Assembly: GCA_041623215.1 (NCBI GenBank)
Contig: JBFJXH010000002.1
Coordinates: 1-45,052, forward strand
Reading direction: 5' to 3'
Source: Thermoplasmatota archaeon
Lineage (GTDB): Archaea > Thermoplasmatota > E2 > JACPAO01 > JAHFTW01
DNA length: 45,052 nucleotides
Below, in pieces: positions 10,579 to 44,376 of this stretch (within the stretch, counting starts at the first letter, position 1; each line of letters starts with the position of its first letter). The notes below the pieces were generated by a model. That model did not search any database, was not told where the DNA came from, and saw nothing but the letters and a program-made list of their open reading frames with translations. The translations under genes and the position numbers were made by a program.

Positions 10579-10665
10579 GCCCAGCCCCCGCTTGAGCCAG
10601 GAAGCCGAGTGGTGTTCCGGTGCGGTTAAAGTCGAAACGCCAGTGGCCGCGCCCTAGGATTGACC

Positions 10666-11403
10666 ATGTTCAAAGCGACCGTGAAGGCGGAGACGCTCAA
10701 GACCGTGCTCGACGCGGTCCACACCCTTGTTGACGAGGCGAAGATTCACATCACGCCCGAAGGGCTCAGCCTGAAGGCCGTGGACCCCGCCCATGTCGCC
10801 ATGGTGGACCTGTCGCTGGGCAAGGGGGCCTTTGTCTCCTACGGCGCCGATGACATGGAGTTGGGCATGGACCTTGACAAACTCAAGGACATTCTGAAGT
10901 TGGCCGGTAGCGGCGACGAAATCGGCCTCGAATACAAGGAAGACAGCCACAGACTGGTGTTCAAGATTGGTCACTTGACGCGCCGCATGGCCCTGGTGGA
11001 CACGACCAACATGAGCGATCCCAAAGTGCCCAATTTGAACCTCCCCAACCGGGTCACCATGAAGGCGGGCGAATTGCAGCATGGCATCAAGGCAGCCGAG
11101 TCGGTGAGCGACCACATTGCGTTGGTGGCCCACGGCGATTCCTTCCAACTCAGCGCCGACGGCGACACGGACCAGGTCAACCTGGCCCTGTCGGGCGAGG
11201 ACATCATCAAGATTGAGGCGCCCGAGGAGTCGCGGAGTTTGTTCAGCCTGGACTACTTCAGCAACATGGCCAAGGCGGTCCGCAGCAGCGAGGCGGTGAC
11301 GCTGCACTTGGGCACCGATTACCCCGTGAAGATGGAATTCGACATAGCCGACGGCGGCGGTCACATCATGTACCTCCTGGCGCCGCGCATCGAGTCCGAA
11401 TAA
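10666..11403 (+). CDS. pcn: DNA polymerase sliding clamp PCNA
   Basis: About 245 aa. MFKATVKAETLKTVLDAV...ITPEGLSLKAVDPAHVAMVDLSL...YLLAPRIESE follows the archaeal PCNA pattern. The antisense 278-aa ORF was rejected. Confidence 0.92.
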   Translation: MFKATVKAETLKTVLDAVHTLVDEAKIHITPEGLSLKAVDPAHVAMVDLSLGKGAFVSYGADDMELGMDLDKLKDILKLAGSGDEIGLEYKEDSHRLVFKIGHLTRRMALVDTTNMSDPKVPNLNLPNRVTMKAGELQHGIKAAESVSDHIALVAHGDSFQLSADGDTDQVNLALSGEDIIKIEAPEESRSLFSLDYFSNMAKAVRSSEAVTLHLGTDYPVKMEFDIADGGGHIMYLLAPRIESE

Positions 11404-11480
11404 TCGCGCACTCCACCGCGGTGGGGCTGCTACGCCAGCGTGGCGCCAACGTTCATATTGCCGCAGGCGGCGTGCTTGGT

Positions 11481-11834
11481 ATGGCTGCACGTTTTGCCAT
11501 GCTTGCGTTCCTGATTGTTTCCTTGCTGATGGCGGGGTGCACTGCCAGTGGCGGATCGGCCGCGGTTGCCTTCCAAGGTGCCGGAGCCAGCGACCGCACG
11601 GCGACGACCGATTGTGATGACACCGGCTCCGTTGCAGTCGGAACCCAAGGCGCTGGAAGCGTCACGGTGACCGTCACCGACGGCAAAGGAGCGGTGGTCT
11701 TTGAACGCACCTTCCAAGGCGGTGGCCAAGAGGGCCGCGTAGATGACATCAAGGGAGAGCCCGGTGAATGGATGCTCCGAGCGCGCAGTGCTAGCGGTTT
11801 TTCGGGCCAATATGGCATTACGCTGTCGTGCTGA
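11481..11834 (+). CDS. Small lipoprotein or secreted protein of unknown function
   Basis: MAARFAMLAFLIVSLLMAGC has a lipobox-like LMAGC, followed by a Gly/Thr-rich beta-type domain of about 95 aa. It sits between pcn and priL. Confidence 0.55.
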   Translation: MAARFAMLAFLIVSLLMAGCTASGGSAAVAFQGAGASDRTATTDCDDTGSVAVGTQGAGSVTVTVTDGKGAVVFERTFQGGGQEGRVDDIKGEPGEWMLRARSASGFSGQYGITLSC

Positions 11835-23418: not shown

Positions 23419-23742
23419 TGCAGCTTCCGACGGCTGTGTCCGTTACTGTACAAACTTGTGCAAACCGAAGGCGACGAACAGGAGATTTGTTACCAATTCC
23501 GGGGCCGCTACGACCGGCTCCAACGGGCCCACAGGAACCATCACCGGCTATCTGTTACCAAAGCGCACTAAATCCCCCTGCCTCGTCTCCCACCTCCCCG
23601 CTGCGGCCTGGTGCTGCGGCGGGTCCGGTGGCCTCCAAACACCGGGATGGGATGCACAGGGCGAATGACGTGGCCCGACCGCTACCGACGCCTTGCACCC
23701 CACCCCCTGGCCCCACTTCTGCATTCCACCCGAGGGGATATC

Positions 23743-26700
23743 ATGAGTCACGACACAATACCAGATGGCACCCAAAGCGCCCTTTTGGACCACGAGGCCA
23801 CGCGCGCCGAGGACAGCCCCGACACAACGATTACCATGACTCCAGACGGATCTCCACCCCAAGCCGCCTCCCCGAGTCCGGCCGCGGACAGCAGCGCGGA
23901 CGTTGTCACGGCTGCGCCGCTTCCTGGTGCGGACGCTGGACAAACTCCTCCGGCCGCTACCGGCGGCGTGGACGAAGCTCCCGCTGGTCGAGGCCTCACC
24001 GTGGCCCGCCGGTTCACTGAGGTCGGTGACGACCCCTTCAAGACGCTAGAATGGACGACACGCCGCAGTGTCATTAGCAACCCCGATGGCAGTGTCGTGT
24101 TCGAGGCGGAAGCGGCCGAAGTCCCAGCCGACTGGTCCCAGTTGGCCACCGACATCATTGTCTCCAAATACTTCCGCAAGGCAGGCGTGCCGCAACCGGA
24201 CGGGACCACGGGCGCAGAAACCAGCGCCGCCCAGGTGTGCCACCGCATCGCTAACACGGTGCGCTGGTACGGCGAAAAGCAGGGCTATTTTGCGTCGAAG
24301 GAAGACGCGGACACGTTCGAGGATGAACTAAAGTGGCTGCTGATTACACAGCGCGGCGCCTTCAATAGCCCGGTGTGGTTCAATTGTGGCCACGAACATG
24401 TGTACGGAATCACGGGTAGCGGCGGCAACTGGGCCTGGGACCACGAGGCCAAGGAAGTCCGCCAGGTCGAGAATAACTACGCCCGGCCTCAGTGCAGCGC
24501 CTGCTTCATCCAGAAGGTCGAGGACAACCTGATTGACTCCAAGGGTATTTTCGAACTCCTGCAAGCCGAGGCGCGTTTGTTCAAGTACGGCAGCGGCACC
24601 GGCAGCAACTTCTCGCAGATTCGCAGCCGCTATGAGAATCTCAGCGGCGGTGGCACCAGCAGCGGCCTGATGAGCTTCCTCAAGGTGTTGGATGCCGGCG
24701 CCGGGGCAACCAAGAGTGGTGGAACAACCCGCCGCGCCGCCAAGATGGTGACGCTGGACATGGACCACCCTGAAATTCTGGACTTCATTACTTGGAAGGT
24801 CCGTGAGGAGGACAAGGCGCTCATGTTGATTCGCGCCGGCATGGACGCGGACTTCAATGGCGAAGCCTACGCGACCGTGAGCGGCCAGAACTCCAACAAC
24901 TCGGTGCGCGTAACGGACACCTTCATGCAGGCGGTGGAAGCCGACGGTGAATGGCAAACCGTGATGCGCACGACGGGCGAGGTCCATGAAACCTACAAGG
25001 CGCGTGAGATGTGGAACCAGGTCGCAGATGCGGCGTGGCGCTGCGCCGATCCTGGCCTGCAATACGACACCACCATCAACACATGGCACACCTGCAAGGT
25101 GACCGACCGCATCAACGGTTCCAACCCCTGCAGCGAATACATGTTCCTCGACGACTCGGCCTGTAACCTGGCAAGTCTCAACCTGCTGAAGTTCCTAGAC
25201 GCGGAAGGCAACTTCGACGTGGAGGGCTATCGCCACGCCATCCGTGTTTTCTTCATTGCGCAGGAAATTTTCGTCGATCTATCCTCCTACCCAACAGAGG
25301 ACATTGCCCGCAACTCCCACGACTACCGGCCGCTAGGTCTTGGCTATGCCAACCTGGGGGCCTTGCTGATGGTGAAGGGTTTCGCTTACGATTCACCTGA
25401 GGGACGAGCCGTGGCTGGCGCCCTGACGGGCATTCTTTGCGGTCATGCGTACAAGGTTAGCGCCGAGATGGCCGCCGTCAAGGGTCCGTTTGTGGGCCTG
25501 AATGTGGAGGACGAAACGGGCCAAAGCAACTGGGACACCATGGCAGAAGTCATTGGTATGCACCTTGACGCCGCAAAGCGTCTGCGCGATACCGGCAGCC
25601 CGCTGGAACAAATGGAGGGCTGCGACATGGCGACGCCCGCCATCGCCAACGGCCCCTTCGCTAGCATTTTCGATGCCGCAGTCCAAGATTGGGATGCCGC
25701 GCTGGAACAAGGCCGTGTAGATGGCTGGCGCAACGCTCAAGCGACCGTGCTTGCCCCCACGGGCACCATTGGTCTTCTCATGGATTGTGACACCACCGGT
25801 GTCGAGCCCGATTTCTCGCTTGTCAAGTTCAAGAAGCTGGCCGGTGGCGGCTACTTCAAGATCATTAACCAGTCCGTGCCGGCAGCGCTCCGGAATCTTG
25901 GCTACTCGGAAGAGGAAATCCGCCTGGTCGAGCAATTCGCTATCGGTCACGGAACGTTGGAAGGTGGCCCCGTGGACAAGGCCATGTTCCTGGACAAGGG
26001 CTTCACCGAAGACCAATATCAGGAAGCGTACGACGCTGTGGTGCGCGAGAAGGCCTTCAATGAGTACACGCCAGGCATCAGTCCGGCTGCCATGCGCAAG
26101 GCCGGCTTCAGCCGCCAGGCGGTACGGGAGCTACAAGCGTACGTGGAAGGCCACCAAACCATCGAAGGCAGCCTCGTTCGCGAGGAGCACTTGCCCATCT
26201 TTGATTGCGCCAACAAGTGTGGCGATGGCCAACGATTCATTCACCACACGGGGCACATCCGGATGATGGCGGCAACCCAGCCCTTCTTGTCGGGTGCCAT
26301 TAGCAAGACCATCAACATGCCCAACGAGGTCACCGTCGAGGATGTGGCAGAGGCGTACATGATGGGCTGGAAGTTGAACCTCAAGGCGGTCGCCCTGTAC
26401 CGTGATGGCTCCAAGCACAGCCAGGTCCTGAGCAGTGGCGGGAAGGACGACGAAGAAGGCGAGGAAGCAACCGTCCAAGTGGTCGTGAAAGAACCAGCCG
26501 GCCCCAAGCACGGTGAAATTGAACGGCCGCCCCGCGACAATGACCAAGGCTTCAAGCGCACCGTGACCATTTACACGGCGCATGGCCCCGAAAAGGTCGA
26601 CATTCACGTCTGGGAATACAATGACGGGCGCCCCTGTGAAGTGTTCGTTTCCGCTCGCAAGTCCGGTACTTTGACGGACAACTTCCTCAAGGAAGTGGGC

Positions 26701-27198
26701 AAGAACTACTCGCGCACCCTGCAACTTGGCATGAGCCTGGATGAGCTCACCAAGAAGATGGTGAACGAGCACGGGCCTCTGGCCGGTCAAACGGACCACC
26801 GCTACATCAAGAGCTGCCTGGGCATCCAGGATCTCATTGGCAAGCTGCTACGCTACGAATACTTCGGCGAGAACCAGTTCCTCAGCGTCCAACCCGACCC
26901 CGAGGCACCTGACTACGTTCCCACCCGCCGCGAAGTGCTCGAGGCCCTGCGCCTGGCTCGCCAACGCCCCCGCAACGAAAAGGCGCTCACTGACTTTGCG
27001 CCAGCTGAGGAAGCGGAGGAAGACGAGGGTGAACACAGCTTCGACAAGGCGCTTGGCAAGACCAGCGACGACCCGAACGACTTGCTCAAGAGTATGGGCG
27101 GCGACGCGCCGAGTTGCGATTCTTGCGGCCACACGACCGTTCGCAACGGTGCTTGCTACAAGTGTCTGAATTGCGGCAATTCGATGGGTTGCTCCTGA
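23743..27198 (+). CDS. nrdJ: Class II (adenosylcobalamin-dependent) ribonucleotide reductase with a TSCPD domain and a C-terminal Zn ribbon
   Basis: Motifs: NPCSEYMFLDDSACNLASLNL, VLAPTGTIGLLMDCDTTGVEPDF, GAISKTINMP, the TSCPD-like region ...RPCEVFVSARKSG...YIKSCLGIQD, and the terminal CDSCGH...CYKCLNCGNSMGC. The Met at 23743 is preceded by GAGGGG. The first ~90 aa are low complexity. Confidence 0.93.
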   Translation: MSHDTIPDGTQSALLDHEATRAEDSPDTTITMTPDGSPPQAASPSPAADSSADVVTAAPLPGADAGQTPPAATGGVDEAPAGRGLTVARRFTEVGDDPFKTLEWTTRRSVISNPDGSVVFEAEAAEVPADWSQLATDIIVSKYFRKAGVPQPDGTTGAETSAAQVCHRIANTVRWYGEKQGYFASKEDADTFEDELKWLLITQRGAFNSPVWFNCGHEHVYGITGSGGNWAWDHEAKEVRQVENNYARPQCSACFIQKVEDNLIDSKGIFELLQAEARLFKYGSGTGSNFSQIRSRYENLSGGGTSSGLMSFLKVLDAGAGATKSGGTTRRAAKMVTLDMDHPEILDFITWKVREEDKALMLIRAGMDADFNGEAYATVSGQNSNNSVRVTDTFMQAVEADGEWQTVMRTTGEVHETYKAREMWNQVADAAWRCADPGLQYDTTINTWHTCKVTDRINGSNPCSEYMFLDDSACNLASLNLLKFLDAEGNFDVEGYRHAIRVFFIAQEIFVDLSSYPTEDIARNSHDYRPLGLGYANLGALLMVKGFAYDSPEGRAVAGALTGILCGHAYKVSAEMAAVKGPFVGLNVEDETGQSNWDTMAEVIGMHLDAAKRLRDTGSPLEQMEGCDMATPAIANGPFASIFDAAVQDWDAALEQGRVDGWRNAQATVLAPTGTIGLLMDCDTTGVEPDFSLVKFKKLAGGGYFKIINQSVPAALRNLGYSEEEIRLVEQFAIGHGTLEGGPVDKAMFLDKGFTEDQYQEAYDAVVREKAFNEYTPGISPAAMRKAGFSRQAVRELQAYVEGHQTIEGSLVREEHLPIFDCANKCGDGQRFIHHTGHIRMMAATQPFLSGAISKTINMPNEVTVEDVAEAYMMGWKLNLKAVALYRDGSKHSQVLSSGGKDDEEGEEATVQVVVKEPAGPKHGEIERPPRDNDQGFKRTVTIYTAHGPEKVDIHVWEYNDGRPCEVFVSARKSGTLTDNFLKEVGKNYSRTLQLGMSLDELTKKMVNEHGPLAGQTDHRYIKSCLGIQDLIGKLLRYEYFGENQFLSVQPDPEAPDYVPTRREVLEALRLARQRPRNEKALTDFAPAEEAEEDEGEHSFDKALGKTSDDPNDLLKSMGGDAPSCDSCGHTTVRNGACYKCLNCGNSMGCS

Positions 27199-39749: not shown

Positions 39750-40229
39750 TCAGGCGTGTTCGTGGCCGTCGTCGGCTTCTTCGTCATGCGGCATGAAGTC
39801 GATGGTCCATTGGGTGTGCCAGGTGCCGGCTGCACATCCGCTGGAAGGCCGGTAGCCGACGCTGTAGCTGCCTGGGGCCGGGTTGGCAATCTTGCGCTCT
39901 TCGTTGATGTTGAGGGCAATGGCGTTGCCGTTGGGGTCCAACAGGTCCACAATCATGGGGCACGGTCCAACGGCGTCCATGCCGGCCGTGACGTACAGGT
40001 GCGTGGCATTGCTGGGCACGCGGAAATCGTGGTTGATGTTGTAGTCGCCGCCGGTGAATTGGGTGTTGATGACGGCGGCAAACGGTGTGGAGTCGCTGCC
40101 AGTGATGGGCTCAGGGATGGTTTCGGGTTCGGCCATTTCGACTTCGTCGAGAGGTTGGTTGTCGGCGTCGTCGCCGAGGCAGCCGGCGAAGGAGATTAGC
40201 AACAGGGTTAGTACAAGGGACCAGCGCAT
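39750..40229 (-). CDS. Lipoprotein of unknown function with an acidic, His-rich C-terminus
   Basis: MRWSLVLTLLLISFAGC has the lipobox, followed by a beta-rich domain and the C-terminal HDEEADDGHEHA. Confidence 0.65.
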   Translation of the reverse strand: MRWSLVLTLLLISFAGCLGDDADNQPLDEVEMAEPETIPEPITGSDSTPFAAVINTQFTGGDYNINHDFRVPSNATHLYVTAGMDAVGPCPMIVDLLDPNGNAIALNINEERKIANPAPGSYSVGYRPSSGCAAGTWHTQWTIDFMPHDEEADDGHEHA

Positions 40230-40275: not shown

Positions 40276-40749
40276 CTAGAAGTCGGGGTGGATGTCGCCC
40301 CACGGCGCATGGGGTGGCGCTTGGTCGGCCGGGCAGGCGACTTCACTGTAGTACACGTCGTCGCCGTCTTCTCCATTGATGTCGATGATGATGTAGCATC
40401 CATCCTTCCAGCCCGGCATGTCGTCCGCTTCGTACCAGTGCACCGTGGCGCTCGCGGCGTCGTGTTCCACGTCGGCAAAGACGCCGCGCACGTCGCCGTT
40501 GAACCACCACATCTGGTAGCATCCTTCGTAGCCACCGGTGGCAGCGTCAAGGCCTGTCATGTCGTCTTCGGCTCGGACGATGTTGCTGCCGGCGTAGGAT
40601 GGGTCATCGTTGCAGTGATGATGGTCCTCGTCGCCGCTGGATTGTTGGTAGCAGGTATCTTCCGATTCATCCGTGCAGGTCTGGGTATCTGAGCTGACGG
40701 GCCAAGCGACCAAGAGCATGGCCGTTGCAAGAGCAACGATGAGGCGCAT
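40276..40749 (-). CDS. Secreted acidic Cys-rich protein of unknown function
   Basis: The signal peptide is MRLIVALATAMLLVAWPVSS. The mature part contains 7 Cys, a DEDHHHC cluster and is strongly acidic. Confidence 0.6.
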   Translation of the reverse strand: MRLIVALATAMLLVAWPVSSDTQTCTDESEDTCYQQSSGDEDHHHCNDDPSYAGSNIVRAEDDMTGLDAATGGYEGCYQMWWFNGDVRGVFADVEHDAASATVHWYEADDMPGWKDGCYIIIDINGEDGDDVYYSEVACPADQAPPHAPWGDIHPDF

Positions 40750-40785: not shown

Positions 40786-41697
40786 CTATGGGGTGAAGGT
40801 GTGCTTGAGAGCCGCCGTTTGGGTTGGGGTGGTGCCACAGCAGGAGCCGACGATGCCGGCGCCGGCCGCGACCCATTCCCGTGCGGCTTCCACATACTCT
40901 TCGACCGACACGTCCCGCCCCTGCTCCCAACCCATCACAGGGTCAGCGGTGCCGATGTTGGCGTAGGCTCCCCAGGGGCCATACCAGTTCTCGGCGATAA
41001 TGGGGGCGGCGCGGGTGACGGCGCCGATGGGGCAACAATTGACCAAGAGCGCGTCGGGCCGGGCGTCGCCGAGGTCGCGCATGGCTTGGATGGCCTCGGG
41101 CAGGGGGGTGCCATCCAGCAGGTCACCACTCGCATCCAGCACAAGGCTCGTCCATACCTCCAAGCCAGTCGCGGAAGCTGCACGCGTGGCGGCCACCGCT
41201 TCGCGGATGGTGTTCATGGTTTCCACCAGCAGCAAATCAACGCCCGCTTCCACCATCCACGCGGCGTGCATGGCATGTTCCTCCTGCAACGCGCCATCGC
41301 CAGGAACCAGGTCAGGCCGGTAACAATCGGCCACCGGTGCGAGGCTGCCGGCGACGCGCACCATGTGCGAGGCATCGTTTGCCGCGGCCTTGGCGGCCTG
41401 AACGGCGGCGGCGACCATGGCGGGGCCATGTTGGAGGAGCCCGGCCTGACGGAGGGTGCTCGGATTGGTGCGAAACGTGTTGGCGGTCAGCACCTGCGCG
41501 CCGGCGGCGACGTAGTCCCGGTGGATGTTCTCGAGCAAATCGGTCGCGTCGAGGTTGGCCCCGGCAGACCACAAGGGCAGGCGCGTTTCGTAACCGCGGC
41601 GATGTAGCTCCGTGCCGGTGGGCCCGTCGAGAAGAAGGGGGCGGCCGTTTGCCAAGGGCGTCAGCACGTCCACGTTTGGCCATGGTTTGGAGGCCAA
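40786..41697 (-). CDS. mmuM: Homocysteine S-methyltransferase family protein (MmuM/BHMT-type Zn enzyme)
   Basis: Motifs: LLLDGPTGTEL, a mid-protein VNCC, and the C-terminal GSCCGTTP zinc-ligand motif. The longest ORF (to 42027) has an Arg-rich nonsense N-terminus, so the TTG at 41697 or the GTG at 41673 is a plausible start. Confidence 0.85.
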   Translation of the reverse strand: MASKPWPNVDVLTPLANGRPLLLDGPTGTELHRRGYETRLPLWSAGANLDATDLLENIHRDYVAAGAQVLTANTFRTNPSTLRQAGLLQHGPAMVAAAVQAAKAAANDASHMVRVAGSLAPVADCYRPDLVPGDGALQEEHAMHAAWMVEAGVDLLLVETMNTIREAVAATRAASATGLEVWTSLVLDASGDLLDGTPLPEAIQAMRDLGDARPDALLVNCCPIGAVTRAAPIIAENWYGPWGAYANIGTADPVMGWEQGRDVSVEEYVEAAREWVAAGAGIVGSCCGTTPTQTAALKHTFTP

Positions 41698-41999
41698 GAA
41701 CCCTGCTGCGGTTGCCTTACAGGTCCGTGCCTCGGTGGCGAGGATGACGATGCCGCCGCTGCACCGGCGCCAAGGATGCGGCCGGCGAGCGGCCCCGCGA
41801 CGGGCACGCTGTATGCGGCGCGTGTTTCGACGAAATGCAGGACCAAGTCGTCTTTTCGAAGTTCGATGGTGTTGCCTGCTACTGGGCCAGCAAGGGTAAT
41901 GCCTGCGCCCTAGAAGATGACGGCGTCGTTGGGTGCGTAGACGTTGCCTGCGTGCCACAGGCTCCATGGCCCATGCTTGCGACCAACGTAGAAAGTCAC
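41661..41999 (-). pseudogene. Protein-like reading frame interrupted by one in-frame TAG (41910-41912); candidate pseudogene or recoded small gene
   Basis: The same minus frame reads (V)TFYVGRKHGPWSLWHAGNVYAPNDAVIF-TAG-GAGITLAGPVAGNTIELRKDDLVLHFVETRAAYSVPVAGPLAGRILGAG... Codon third positions are GC-biased like neighbouring genes. No family recognised. Confidence 0.25.
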
Positions 42000-42039
42000 A
42001 CGAAACGGCCACTTGCGGGCGATGCAAACGCCGACAGCC

Positions 42040-42522
42040 TCAGGGCGAGGCTTGCGCAATCGTGAGTGTCTCAACCACGGTTGAGCCTGTGCCGTGGACA
42101 CGCCATTCAAGCACGCGGGCATTGGGCAATTGCGAGCGTTCCCCTGCAAAATCCACGACTAAATCTCGGCCGAAAATCTCCTTCGAGGCCAACTGCAACG
42201 AATATTCGTCAAACACCCGGTCGATTACCCATTGCACCGAGCCATTGTCCATGACAATGTCGGCTGACAAGATGGGGACATCGCGCCAACCCTCGACGCG
42301 CAATGTGTCCGGTCGCGGCCCCACCTGCCCCGGTGCTGCCGGGTCGACGACTCCTGGCGGTTGGGTGCTGCTTGTGTCTTCGCTCGGCGCTTCGCCCGGG
42401 TCTGGCAGGTCTTCATCACTTGAATCGGAATCGCGTTCTGGGCGGGCGACCGGATCGGGTTCAGGCTCAACCAGGCACCCAATCAGCAAGAAGGGAATGA
42501 GGAAAGGGGCAAGCCGCATCAT
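42040..42522 (-). CDS. Lipoprotein of unknown function, translationally coupled to the Hcp-like gene
   Basis: MMRLAPFLIPFLLIGC has the lipobox, followed by an acidic Pro/Asp/Ser-rich linker and a folded C-terminal domain of about 90 aa. The ATG overlaps the upstream stop (ATGA at 42519-42522). Confidence 0.7.
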   Translation of the reverse strand: MMRLAPFLIPFLLIGCLVEPEPDPVARPERDSDSSDEDLPDPGEAPSEDTSSTQPPGVVDPAAPGQVGPRPDTLRVEGWRDVPILSADIVMDNGSVQWVIDRVFDEYSLQLASKEIFGRDLVVDFAGERSQLPNARVLEWRVHGTGSTVVETLTIAQASP

Positions 42523-43016
42523 TCCAACCCAGTAAAGACGATGGTCGTGTCAGCACGCTGGTCCTGGGTTGGGCGATATTCAAACGAGATTTTGTTGTAG
42601 TAAAAGGCGACTTCTTCGGTTGGCCGGTCGTCGGCATCACTCGCGGAGGAACTGGACAAATGGTAACTGCTCACAAGGGCATCCTCCATGCGAATCACAA
42701 GGTAGGCTTCGCCGTAGCGGTCGGTTGTGCCAAGCTCCACGCTACCCAGCGATTCTCCAGTGGCCATGCTCTGCATTAGTTTCGGTGATGCGTGGTCCAT
42801 TTGTCGTACCACGACGATGTCACTGACGCGGTTACGGCCATCTCGATCTTGCGTCGCCGTGAACGACCACGACGCGACATCATCGGAAATCGACGCTCCG
42901 CCATCGGTGCGGTCCACTGCCTCCCCCTTGATGTCGCCGATTTTCATGTACGCTGCGCCGCTAACTTGTGGCAGCACCAAGGCAAAGGCGACGATGCATA
43001 GCATGAGTACGCGCAT
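42519..43016 (-). CDS. hcp: Hcp-family protein (type VI secretion tube protein fold) with a predicted N-terminal signal peptide
   Basis: YMKIGDIKGEAVD, ASWSF, VVRQMDHASPKLMQSMATGE, AYLVIRMEDALVSSY and EEVAFYYNKISFEY are collinear with Hcp1-type sequences. The Met at 43016 adds MRVLMLCIVAFALVLPQVSGA. Alternative starts are 43073 (longest ORF) and 42947 (no signal peptide). Confidence 0.85.
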   Translation of the reverse strand: MRVLMLCIVAFALVLPQVSGAAYMKIGDIKGEAVDRTDGGASISDDVASWSFTATQDRDGRNRVSDIVVVRQMDHASPKLMQSMATGESLGSVELGTTDRYGEAYLVIRMEDALVSSYHLSSSSASDADDRPTEEVAFYYNKISFEYRPTQDQRADTTIVFTGLE

Positions 43017-43144
43017 GAAGGGATGGTTGGCGAGGGTTCGGGGTAAGGGTTTGCCGATGGTGGTTCGGCCCATGGTCCAAGGGCCCGGTGACTGCCGTAA
43101 GGCGCGTCAGTGGGCGGCAGGGGGTTCGAAAAATCAGCAGGTGC

Positions 43145-43162
43145 TATCGAACCAGTTCGATA
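43145..43162. promoter_or_regulatory. Perfect 8-bp inverted repeat (TATCGAAC-CA-GTTCGATA) in the divergent hcp / E1-alpha intergenic region; candidate operator
   Basis: Seen directly in the sequence. It lies about 15 nt upstream of a TATA-like CTTAAGAA (43178-43186) and 33-50 nt upstream of the E1-alpha start candidates (43195 and 43213). Confidence 0.4.
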
Positions 43163-43194
43163 ACATTGGCCATGGTCCTTAAGAAGGGGCCTCG

Positions 43195-44376
43195 GTGGCC
43201 CGGTTCGACACCATGCCCGTGACTGTAGCGTACCAGCCGCCAGCCATCGAGCACCTGAGCATCCTCGACGAGCACGGCAACGTAGACTCGAAGTTGGAGC
43301 CAGACGTTCCGGAGGAAGACCTTGTAGAACTCTACGAGACCATGGTCCTGTCGCGTGAACACGACCTGCGCCGCTTGAAGCTACAGCGCCAAGGCCGCAT
43401 CGGCACCTTCGCCCCGGCCCACGGCCAAGAAGCCGCCCAGGCCGGCACCATTTACGCCGTGCGCGACGACGACTGGTTCTGCCCCGCCTTCCGCGAATCG
43501 GTGTGCTACCTGTGGCGCGGCATGGACATCGCAGACGACCTGCTGTACTGTGCCGGCTTCGAGGAAGGCATGAACATCCCCGACGGCGCGCACACCTTGC
43601 CCATCTGCATCCCCATCGGCACCCAATACACGCACGCGCTCGGCGTCGCGTGGGCTGAAGTGCTACAAGGCAGCGACCGCGTCGCCATCACGTACGGTGG
43701 CGACGGCAGCACCAGCGAAGGCGACTTCCACGAAGCCATCAACATGGCCGCCGTGCAAAACATCCCCGTCGTCTTCGTCATCCAAAACAACCAATGGGCC
43801 ATCAGTGTCCCGCGGGAAAAACAAACCAAGAGCGAAACCATTGCCCAGAAAGCCATCGCGTACGGCATCCCCTGCATGCAAGTGGACGGCAACGACATCC
43901 TGGCCGTCATCACGGCTGCCCGAAAAGCGGTCGAACACGCCCGCAGCGGCAACGGTCCCTTCCTCATCGAAGCCGTAACGTTCCGCATGAACGTCCACAC
44001 CACGGCCGACGACCCGCGCAAATACCGCAGCCCCGACGAGGAAAAATCGTGGGAACCCAAAGATCCCCTCATCCGTTTCCGAACCTACCTTGAAGGCAAG
44101 GGCCTATGGGACGAGGACAAGGAGAAGCGCCTTCGCAAGGCCATCAAGAGCCGCCTTGACGACGCCGTCGAACGCTTCGAGGCTCGCAAAAAGGAACTCG
44201 AACACGACTATGATGCCATGTTCAACTACGCCTACATTGACGAGCCGCCGTACCTAACAAAGCAACGTCGGGAAATGGCCGAACACTTCGAATCCGTCGG
44301 CGGCGCCAAGACCGAACACGACTTGCACGACGCGCCGCACGACTTGCAACGCCACTTGTCGGGAGGTAGCAACTAA
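43195..44376 (+). CDS. pdhA: 2-oxoacid (pyruvate/branched-chain) dehydrogenase E1 component, alpha subunit
   Basis: The TPP motif is YGGDGSTSEGDFHEAINMAAV...VVFVIQNNQWAIS, with DGNDILAV. The start is either the GTG at 43195 or the ATG at 43213. Confidence 0.9.
   Translation: MARFDTMPVTVAYQPPAIEHLSILDEHGNVDSKLEPDVPEEDLVELYETMVLSREHDLRRLKLQRQGRIGTFAPAHGQEAAQAGTIYAVRDDDWFCPAFRESVCYLWRGMDIADDLLYCAGFEEGMNIPDGAHTLPICIPIGTQYTHALGVAWAEVLQGSDRVAITYGGDGSTSEGDFHEAINMAAVQNIPVVFVIQNNQWAISVPREKQTKSETIAQKAIAYGIPCMQVDGNDILAVITAARKAVEHARSGNGPFLIEAVTFRMNVHTTADDPRKYRSPDEEKSWEPKDPLIRFRTYLEGKGLWDEDKEKRLRKAIKSRLDDAVERFEARKKELEHDYDAMFNYAYIDEPPYLTKQRREMAEHFESVGGAKTEHDLHDAPHDLQRHLSGGSN

Follow-up and report, generated by a model that had tools for sequence, protein, structure and literature searches.

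A predicted exported Hcp-family protein in a Thermoplasmatota archaeon and its leader-bearing relatives

Introduction

Canonical Hcp (TssD) is leaderless and cytoplasmic, is encoded together with the core type VI secretion system (T6SS) genes and is expelled by sheath contraction. The protein is regarded as a diagnostic marker of this system and as one leaving the cell solely through that machine. On a stretch of 45,052 nucleotides from a Thermoplasmatota archaeon (GenBank assembly GCA_041623215.1, contig JBFJXH010000002.1, positions 1–45,052; this whole stretch is called the window here) a first-pass annotation made from the sequence had noticed an open reading frame (ORF) which resembles Hcp, appears to carry a signal peptide and overlaps the ORF of a putative lipoprotein. 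The question is what a T6SS tube protein with a leader does in such an organism and whether it belongs to a T6SS at all. We could show that this gene is a divergent representative of a large branch of the Hcp family whose members bear leaders and which extends over at least three archaeal and many bacterial phyla, and that in this clade the leader and a T6SS neighbourhood are mutually exclusive. It appears fairly probable to us that the gene codes for a T6SS-independent, Sec-exported member of the Hcp (TssD) family whose oligomer may be held outside the membrane by a partner protein. The features in question are the following.

42519–43073, minus strand: Hcp/TssD-family ORF, longest reading 184 amino acids (aa), probable start Met20 at 43016
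42951–43016, minus strand: predicted Sec-type signal peptide M20–A41, MRVLMLCIVAFALVLPQVSGAA, predicted cleavage beside G-A-A and just before Y42
42522–42950, minus strand: mature Hcp β-barrel domain Y42–E184, Pfam match at residues 42–166
42588–42638, minus strand: hallmark motif DADDRPTEEVAFYYNKI, residues 146–162, last strands of the barrel
42519–42522, minus strand: ATGA stop/start overlap of both ORFs, sequence GGAATGATGC
42040–42522, minus strand: ORFan lipobox protein of 160 aa with signal and lipobox, linker and C-terminal domain

The Hcp-family gene and its leader

The profile search with Pfam PF05638 (T6SS_HCP), which the first-pass annotation had proposed as a check, recovered the Hcp ORF with E=2.7e-21 and 76.6 bits at a cutoff of 23.5, and the match covers the full profile (positions 1–129). 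The best sequence match in the PDB as found with phmmer is Hcp1 PA0085 of Pseudomonas aeruginosa (1y12, E=1.8e-10). Both proteins have the same Pfam family, the same β-barrel fold and ∼28% identity over 142–148 aligned columns, and their alignment reproduces all five sequence blocks from which the Hcp identity had been claimed. An AlphaFold2 model of the single chain, built from an alignment of 104 homologues, has a mean predicted local distance difference test score (pLDDT) of 82. It consists of strands at residues 40–45, 66–91, 111–140, and 152–166, a helix at 96–105 and a helix of the leader at 18–32. When this model was compared with the PDB by Foldseek, the top 50 listed matches all contained Hcp, either alone, in a fusion construct or in a sheath–tube complex (for example, 1y12, 3eaa, 8yun, 3v4h, 7fcf, 4tv4, and 5xhh), and the best free-standing Hcp chains reached E-values of ∼1e-10 to 1e-6 and target-normalised template modelling scores of 0.66–0.77. 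The mature domain is acidic (25 D+E vs 14 K+R) and has no cysteine. The matches in Pfam, in the PDB and by structure, taken together with a score under the cutoff of the NCBIfam Hcp1 model TIGR03344, characterize the protein as a divergent Hcp member with an intact fold, and we are nearly certain that it belongs to the Hcp family and has the Hcp fold. It is the only Hcp-like ORF of the window, and the region 41400–43250 does not contain a remnant of a second hcp gene.

The longest reading frame has three in-frame methionines, M1 at 43073, M20 at 43016, and M43 at 42947. Starting from M20, the protein begins with MRVLMLCIVAFALVLPQVSGAA followed by YMKIGDIKGE, so that 22 residues precede the first β-strand. 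This stretch has one basic residue in the n-region, a hydrophobic core with a 9-residue Kyte–Doolittle mean of 3.28 and small residues at the positions −1 and −3. A start at M20 yields a leader similar in length to that of the Woesearchaeota homologue P0002, and a start at M1 would add an extension of 19 residues. Neither a twin-arginine motif nor a class III (prepilin-type) site was found in the leader, and therefore the Sec route is the simplest reading.

The leader is rarely produced by chance. We applied a simple criterion for n-, h-, and c-regions in which the cleavage site has to adjoin the domain. When the upstream DNA was shuffled with its dinucleotides preserved, 11 of 20000 sequences passed, and among arbitrary window segments 42 of 12820 did so. 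More important, the hydrophobic leader is conserved, a point which the first-pass annotation had wished to see examined: 96 of the 120 best homologues have such a leader with small −1/−3 residues that ends right at strand 1, and 13 of the 120 are leaderless. The junction GAAY[ML]K[IL]GDIKGE is common to the window protein and to P0002, P0003, P0004, and P0011, the residues in question being QVSGAAYMKIGDIKGEA in the window protein, PAYGAAYLKIGDIKGEA in P0002, PGYSAAYLKLGDIKGD in P0003, PALGAAYMKLGDIKGES in P0004, and TALGAAYLKLGDIKGEA in P0011. Because this S/G-A-A-Y junction is conserved in frame, unlike untranslated DNA, we conclude that the leader is coding. The signal peptide proposed earlier has thus gained in weight, and it is very likely that the window Hcp is exported by Sec, independently of any T6SS.

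Distribution of leaders and T6SS genes in the family

The homology search yielded 374 proteins, most of them 180–220 aa long and equipped with leaders, including proteins from a Woesearchaeota archaeon and from a Nitrosopumilus metagenome-assembled genome which NCBI names ‘T6SS tube protein Hcp’. All members have in common a nearly invariant C-terminal motif, SGDADDRPTEEVAFYYNKIAF, which the window protein matches exactly at residues 146–162 (D-A-D-D-R-P-T-E-E-V-A-F-Y-Y-N-K-I). In an alignment of 104 sequences P151, T152, and E153 are invariant and D148, D149, R150, E154, V155, F157, and Y159 are conserved to at least 90%. The motif is present in T6SS-linked Hcps of Planctomycetota as well as in exported members. 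As it is equally conserved in both groups, the last strands seem to have retained a surface for self-assembly and not a contact to the sheath.

A search for DDRPTEEV in a single genome of each GTDB species yielded 51 loci, which fall into clearly distinct classes. Leaderless members that start directly at strand 1 (M-A-I-Y-V-K-I-P-G...) come from Planctomycetota, mostly Pirellulales, and all 13 leaderless Planctomycetota loci (12 loci and L061, which codes for P0048) have T6SS genes within ∼10 kb according to Pfam and tblastn. These neighbours are TssC/VipB, TssE, TssF, TssG, ClpV, TssA, TagJ, VgrG, PAAR, FHA-DUF6931 or TssM-N. At the 28 leader-bearing loci, the window included, tblastn did not detect a T6SS gene at any, and their annotated surroundings are housekeeping or unrelated genes. 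The archaeal loci of this kind are found in Woesearchaeota (L001), in Nitrosopumilaceae (L002, L006, and L026), on an archaeal contig of 1.8 Mb (L057) and in the window; the bacterial ones are found in Alpha- and Gammaproteobacteria, Verrucomicrobiota, Armatimonadota, Acidobacteriota, and some Planctomycetota. The first-pass annotation was right in its observation on the window, but the unusual Hcp is not isolated to one archaeon, as the leader-bearing branch is widespread.

The leaderless T6SS Hcps of Planctomycetota (e.g., L012, L019, L027, L044, L047, and P0048) belong to the same clade as the window protein. The leaderless members of Pirellulales have the hallmark motif DADDRPTEEVAFYYNKIAF, whereas P0048 has the diverged form GDPLPTEEV. 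With the window protein P0048 has 37% identity and the N-terminal strand FVKIGDIKGEAT in common. These proteins start at strand 1 and are encoded beside T6SS genes, whereas the window gene codes for a leader and lacks all of those neighbours. The resemblance to the leader-bearing proteins P0002 (Woesearchaeota), P0028 and P0053 (Nitrosopumilaceae), P0067 (the 1.8-Mb archaeal contig), P0033 (an alphaproteobacterium), and P0107 (Verrucomicrobiota) extends to the position of the leader, the C-terminal motif and the orphan setting; in contrast to most leader-bearing relatives, the window protein is devoid of the conserved insertion FSFGVEREMKESGEKGGTEDINIGVGELQE. In a neighbour-joining tree leader-bearing and T6SS-linked sequences are interleaved, suggesting that the leader was gained or lost more than once, but we do not rely on the details of this tree. 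Relatives of the family were not found on viral contigs in IMG/VR. A viral origin was considered and rejected; a single PHROG of unknown function matches the window protein (E=2.9e-11).

Two smaller groups were noted among the 51 loci. Five leaderless loci of Actinomycetota or of an unclassified bacterium have no T6SS neighbours within ±10 kb, namely L029, L030, and L039 of Acidimicrobiia (the contig of L039 being only 7 kb long), L040 of Gaiellaceae and L024; they are mostly from monoderm Actinomycetota and form a third class explained by neither context. In the Planctomycetota loci L032, L034, L035, L037 (two genes), and L048 an N-terminal ETLEQRQLMA-type motif with a spacer takes the place of the Sec leader, and this motif may be a lineage-specific export signal.

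The lipobox partner and the tandem paralogues

The Hcp ORF and the downstream ORF overlap by four nucleotides, the Hcp stop codon occupying 42519–42521 and the ATG of the downstream ORF 42520–42522 (GGG TTG GAA TGA / ATG ATG). Both ORFs, Met20, Met43, the ATGA overlap and the lipobox LLIGC are found exactly as the first-pass annotation had them, the ORFs in the ORF list and the overlap directly in the DNA. The overlap indicates an operon and makes translational coupling of the two ORFs possible.

The N-terminus of the downstream product reads MMR-LAPFLIPFL-LIGC with the lipobox L-I-G-C at residues 13–16 (42475–42486). Judged by a basic n-region, an h-region and the pattern [LVI][ASTVI][GAS]C within ∼30 residues of the start, the protein is predicted to be a prokaryotic lipoprotein lipidated at Cys16. 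The cysteine is followed by an acidic and proline-rich linker of 56 aa (42307–42474) and by a C-terminal globular domain of ∼88 aa (42043–42306). The protein does not match any family in Pfam, NCBIfam, PADLOC or PHROGs, and among 5.8 billion proteins it was itself the sole find. An exhaustive search of 1.84 billion representatives returned weak per-repeat matches only, and the C-terminal domain alone found nothing in Pfam or in the PDB searches. A single-sequence AlphaFold2 model is poor (pLDDT 49).

Two candidate assignments of this protein were tried and rejected. A PAS-like or Fn3-like C-terminal domain was indicated by matches to a kinase with 21 PAS repeats and to a repeat surface protein, but each repeat scores at most 11.7 bits and the low E-values arise because the repeat scores are summed. 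The possibility that the protein is a degenerate second Hcp was dismissed on an hhalign probability of 0.1% against the family and a BLASTP E-value of 0.69 against the second gene of Woesearchaeota.

At the loci examined no homologue of the lipoprotein was found beside other Hcp family members. The pairing claimed earlier is thus real in the window, where the ORFs overlap, but it is not conserved in the wider family; as the lipoprotein is an ORFan and adjoins no other family member, the hcp–lipoprotein pair is lineage-specific.

At many other loci a further exported protein, consisting of a T6SS_HCP domain (Pfam) and a C-terminal extension, is encoded right behind the leader-bearing gene, and the two genes often overlap. 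This arrangement is frequent in the leader-bearing branch, not universal, and is absent from the window, where the ORFan lipoprotein, unrelated to these paralogues, is found in the position of the second gene. Such tandems are as follows.

L001: 184 aa, then 256 aa
L006/L064: 204 aa, then 280 aa
L057: 202 aa, then 308 aa
L008: 186 aa, then 444 aa, with a weak, sub-threshold match to the immunoglobulin (Ig)-like domain Big_9
L062: 202 aa, then 355 aa

At loci of the Nitrosopumilaceae type (L057 and L006) the extension is composed of an acidic linker and two copies of a VPxWVxxTAxFW...LVKxxII repeat. The leader-bearing protein of 246 aa at the Planctomycetota locus L054 has a weak, sub-threshold PEP-CTERM match at its C-terminus. 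Toxin domains were not detected by Pfam in the extensions of the tandem second genes. Taken together, the C-terminal extensions suggest attachment of one of the subunits to the cell surface.

In the T6SS clusters of Pirellulales, too, a second gene comes after that of Hcp and codes for a much more divergent, leaderless Hcp-like paralogue of 200–290 aa (L012:10450–11157, L013:10575–11231, L047:10488–11186 and similar). From this tandem order it follows that the tandem arrangement may predate the gain of the leader.

Three further sequences near this subject were noted. The Hcp ORF of the window ends with ...TTIVFTGLE (residues 180–184 correspond to 42522–42536), and FTGLE recurs in L057, where in the second Hcp-like gene (10606–11532, residues 162–166) it adjoins TEEV on one side and just precedes the acidic linker on the other; it is absent from all other family members and may be due to chance or mark a common joint. 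A secreted protein of 378 aa from Nitrosopumilaceae (L051:3350–4486) combines the thaumarchaeal VPDWV repeat with the VgrG-like sequence GDPDRPLITGQVPN (tblastn with VgrG, E=6.7e-5) and the Hcp motif DDRPTEEVAFYYNKI, and the secreted protein L020:9236–9901 contains GDPDRPIIIGSVPN. Both proteins have isolated T6SS-like motifs without a full domain.

Host and genomic neighbourhood

The gene pair is flanked by two genes with Pfam support.

43195–44376, plus strand: E1_dh, 2-oxoacid dehydrogenase E1 component
within 40786–42027, minus strand: S-methyl_trans, homocysteine S-methyltransferase

The contig is archaeal, from Thermoplasmatota. According to Pfam the window codes for PriL, PriS, Gins51, a RadA-like ATPase, the archaeal-type ribosomal proteins S2 and L11, Trm5/TYW2, a TP_methylase-family protein, Lhr, an H+-translocating pyrophosphatase (H+-PPase) and a class II ribonucleotide reductase (RNR), and the best named relatives of L11 are from Thermoplasmatota. 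The archaeal housekeeping context and the two flanking genes had been claimed before and agree with these results. The same holds true for the claimed absence of T6SS and contractile injection system (CIS) partners nearby: in the window Pfam did not reveal any sheath, baseplate, spike, ClpV, T6SS, CIS or phage-tail gene, the unannotated ORFs compared with PHROGs did not contain a T6SS, CIS or tail gene, and tblastn with 11 T6SS proteins did not detect a T6SS gene. A capsid gene was found neither with Pfam nor with PHROGs, and PADLOC did not find a defence system in the window.

The hcp–lipoprotein junction recurs in identical form on L059 and L060, two short contigs that were obtained independently in other sequencing runs. 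In the closest related genome found, L11 is 96% and E1 88% identical to the window proteins. The synteny with this genome (L063, contig JBFJXU010000192.1) ends at position 43149, 46 nucleotides upstream of E1 (L063:2173). There, a gene of 510 aa without a family and ∼700 nucleotides of unassigned sequence lie upstream of E1, and neither hcp nor the lipoprotein gene is present. Because the closest related genome does not have the pair at this site, we regard the pair as accessory. The third-position G+C contents (GC3) of the two genes are 0.66 and 0.65, compared with 0.67–0.80 for the other genes of the window, and the best homologue of the window Hcp is merely 37% identical. The absence from the closest genome and the low GC3 fit a lineage-specific acquisition of the pair. 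Direct or inverted repeats that would flank a mobile cassette were limited to short chance-level matches.

Discussion

The window protein is unlike canonical Hcp in that it has a Sec leader, an archaeal host and no T6SS neighbours and scores under the cutoff of TIGR03344. Another known variant is ‘Hcp-ET’, an Hcp with a C-terminal extension; these proteins are leaderless, specialised T6SS effectors that carry toxin domains. The second genes of the tandems L001, L006, L008, L057, and L062 are similar to Hcp-ET in having an Hcp domain and a C-terminal extension. Unlike Hcp-ET they have Sec leaders and no toxin match, their extensions showing a weak Ig-domain match or the thaumarchaeal repeat. 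The window protein, also unlike Hcp-ET, has no extension. The tail-tube proteins of phages and extracellular CIS have a distantly related fold. They assemble in the cytoplasm without a signal peptide, and the window has none of the sheath, baseplate, spike or capsid genes that would accompany them. In full-text searches of the literature we did not find a description of a signal-peptide-bearing Hcp or of an Hcp function in archaea; an apparent match referred to the cysteine-rich ‘Hcp’ proteins of Helicobacter, which are unrelated. Thus, the exported Hcp branch is apparently undescribed, and public annotation calls these proteins T6SS tube proteins. From the Sec leaders, the lack of adjoining T6SS genes and the presence in archaea we conclude that the tube fold has probably been repurposed for a task outside the cytoplasmic membrane.

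How might this be realized? We suggest that T6SS tube genes gained a signal peptide, spread by horizontal transfer and became repurposed, giving rise to the clade. The pre-protein would be exported by Sec and the leader cleaved next to G-A-A. The mature acidic barrel would then oligomerise outside the cytoplasmic membrane as Hcp does, in rings or short stacks, and an anchored partner, expressed together with it, would keep the oligomer at the cell surface. For the window archaeon we think of the co-translated lipoprotein, whose acidic stalk is long and whose C-terminal domain is small, as a possible partner; elsewhere the second Hcp-like paralogue with its C-terminal extension might take this part. 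The combination of ring and tether, with the partner placed at the surface by analogy to the extended paralogues, is put forward tentatively, as a possibility. The role of such a surface assembly might be structural, adhesive or ligand-binding. A broader version is more doubtful still. It holds that exported Hcps build unrecognised extracytoplasmic rings or tubes of the phage-tail-tube fold which are tethered by anchored paralogues or lipoproteins and were spread horizontally from Planctomycetota-type T6SS genes into at least three archaeal and many bacterial phyla, or, in a variant, that the exported rings are sponges for incoming T6SS effectors.

Several points weigh against the T6SS-independent, exported and tethered Hcp that we favour. 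The absence of T6SS genes refers to the 45-kb window, in which ∼2 kb of contig lie beyond the gene on one side. The score with TIGR03344 is 45.9 bits at a cutoff of 58.9. The upstream region 43017–43194, by reading, does not contain a clear archaeal TATA box or Shine–Dalgarno sequence that would favour Met1, Met20 or Met43. The neighbour-joining tree relating the subgroups is rough. The lipoprotein is an ORFan without a detectable relationship to the partners at other loci, and its tether role is proposed because of the 4-nucleotide overlap and analogy only. Finally, export, leader cleavage, oligomerisation and contact with the lipoprotein are all steps that we infer.

The variant just mentioned can also be taken on its own. 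Hcp rings bind T6SS effectors in their lumen, and an exported Hcp mimic might act as a sponge or decoy which captures incoming Hcp-dependent effectors in the periplasm or pseudo-periplasm and so protects a cell living beside T6SS-armed Planctomycetota. In agreement with this idea the leaderless proteins most closely related to it are genuine T6SS Hcps, weapon and exported versions do not differ in the most conserved surface motif, and the exported copies occur without nearby T6SS genes in many unrelated lineages, as is typical of horizontally spread defence genes. On the contrary, there is no known immunity or defence gene adjacent and PADLOC finds none, T6SS attacks on archaea are not known, and tandem paralogues that carry C-terminal extensions are more in keeping with a structure at the surface than with a sponge in solution. 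We consider a sponge unlikely.

Two other explanations appear to us slightly less likely again, and equally so. The first is that the hydrophobic N-terminus remains uncleaved and, as a signal anchor, exposes the Hcp domain at the outer membrane face. The h-region of ∼15 residues would be enough to span part of the membrane, AlphaFold2 places a helix at residues 18–32, and leader cleavage is itself a prediction. However, in 96 of the 120 homologues strand 1 is immediately preceded by small −1/−3 residues, a pattern recognised by signal peptidase I, the leader sequences are otherwise unconserved, and an anchored Hcp would make a separate anchored partner redundant. The second is that the pair is a recently acquired passenger without an established function, a horizontally transferred cassette heading for loss. 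The gene is a singleton with a distant best homologue (37% identity), is missing at the syntenic position in the closest genome, has a low GC3 and is paired with an ORFan. These features are opposed by the intact state of both ORFs, by the retention of the hallmark motif and of all nearly invariant family positions, by the identical sequence in two further sequencing runs and by the lipoprotein itself, which shares the style of lipobox and acidic linker with native lipoproteins of the contig.

It is highly improbable that the gene is an ordinary leaderless orphan hcp which starts at Met43 (42947) and serves a T6SS or CIS elsewhere in the genome. A start with MKIGDIKGE... would be close to canonical leaderless starts, for example, MPAFVKIGDIKGE in P0048, and our T6SS scan spans the window. 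But the host is an archaeon, and we know of no T6SS described in archaea; in addition, the 22 codons upstream encode a canonical leader rare by chance, and the S-G-A-A-Y before Met43 is conserved in homologues, unlike an untranslated region. Just as improbable is an assembly chimera or bacterial contamination, in which the hcp–lipoprotein segment would be misjoined to an archaeal contig: the closest T6SS-linked relatives are bacterial, the composition of the pair is slightly below that of the neighbouring genes and the homology to the sister genome stops at 43149, but the pair is internal to the contig with genes of similar G+C content on both sides, the E1 gene beyond it has 88% identity to its counterpart in the sister genome, other archaeal contigs (41–215 kb and 1.8 Mb) independently contain exported Hcp genes, and the design of the lipoprotein is similar to that of other lipobox ORFs in the window. 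The first-pass annotation had itself named findings that would speak against it (a profile search that fails to recover Hcp, a leaderless start together with a complete T6SS or CIS locus elsewhere, a bacterial or chimeric contig), and none of these was found.

For the exported, T6SS-independent Hcp the interest lies less in a single divergent gene than in the branch which the window gene has revealed. It offers a concrete and testable case of a phage-tail or T6SS part that was repurposed, with a likely donor lineage identified, and possibly a new surface assembly of archaea that are abundant in the sea and in sediments (Nitrosopumilaceae, Thermoplasmatota, and Woesearchaeota). In practical terms, where genomes of archaea or other organisms carry the annotation ‘type VI secretion system tube protein Hcp’, this should not be taken as evidence of a T6SS.

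Further observations

The window contains three further small ORFs with leaders.

39750–40229, minus strand: lipobox ORF with an acidic linker of the same style after the lipobox cysteine, no Pfam family
11421–11834, plus strand: lipobox ORF with a lipobox leader
40276–40749, minus strand: small exported ORF with a Sec-type leader, no Pfam family

They suggest a set of lineage-specific surface proteins. A tRNA or an Rfam family was not found in the window. The ∼380 nucleotides between the stop codon of the lipoprotein gene and the Pfam-supported part of the S-methyltransferase gene (41650–42040) have neither a convincing ORF nor an Rfam match, and the S-methyltransferase domain begins at residue 131 of the longest ORF of 413 aa, the Arg-rich N-terminus of which looks untranslated. 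In the class II RNR ORF (23611–27198, 1195 aa) the barrel domain is matched in two stretches and the TSCPD match is weak; the split match is compatible with an intein or another insertion.

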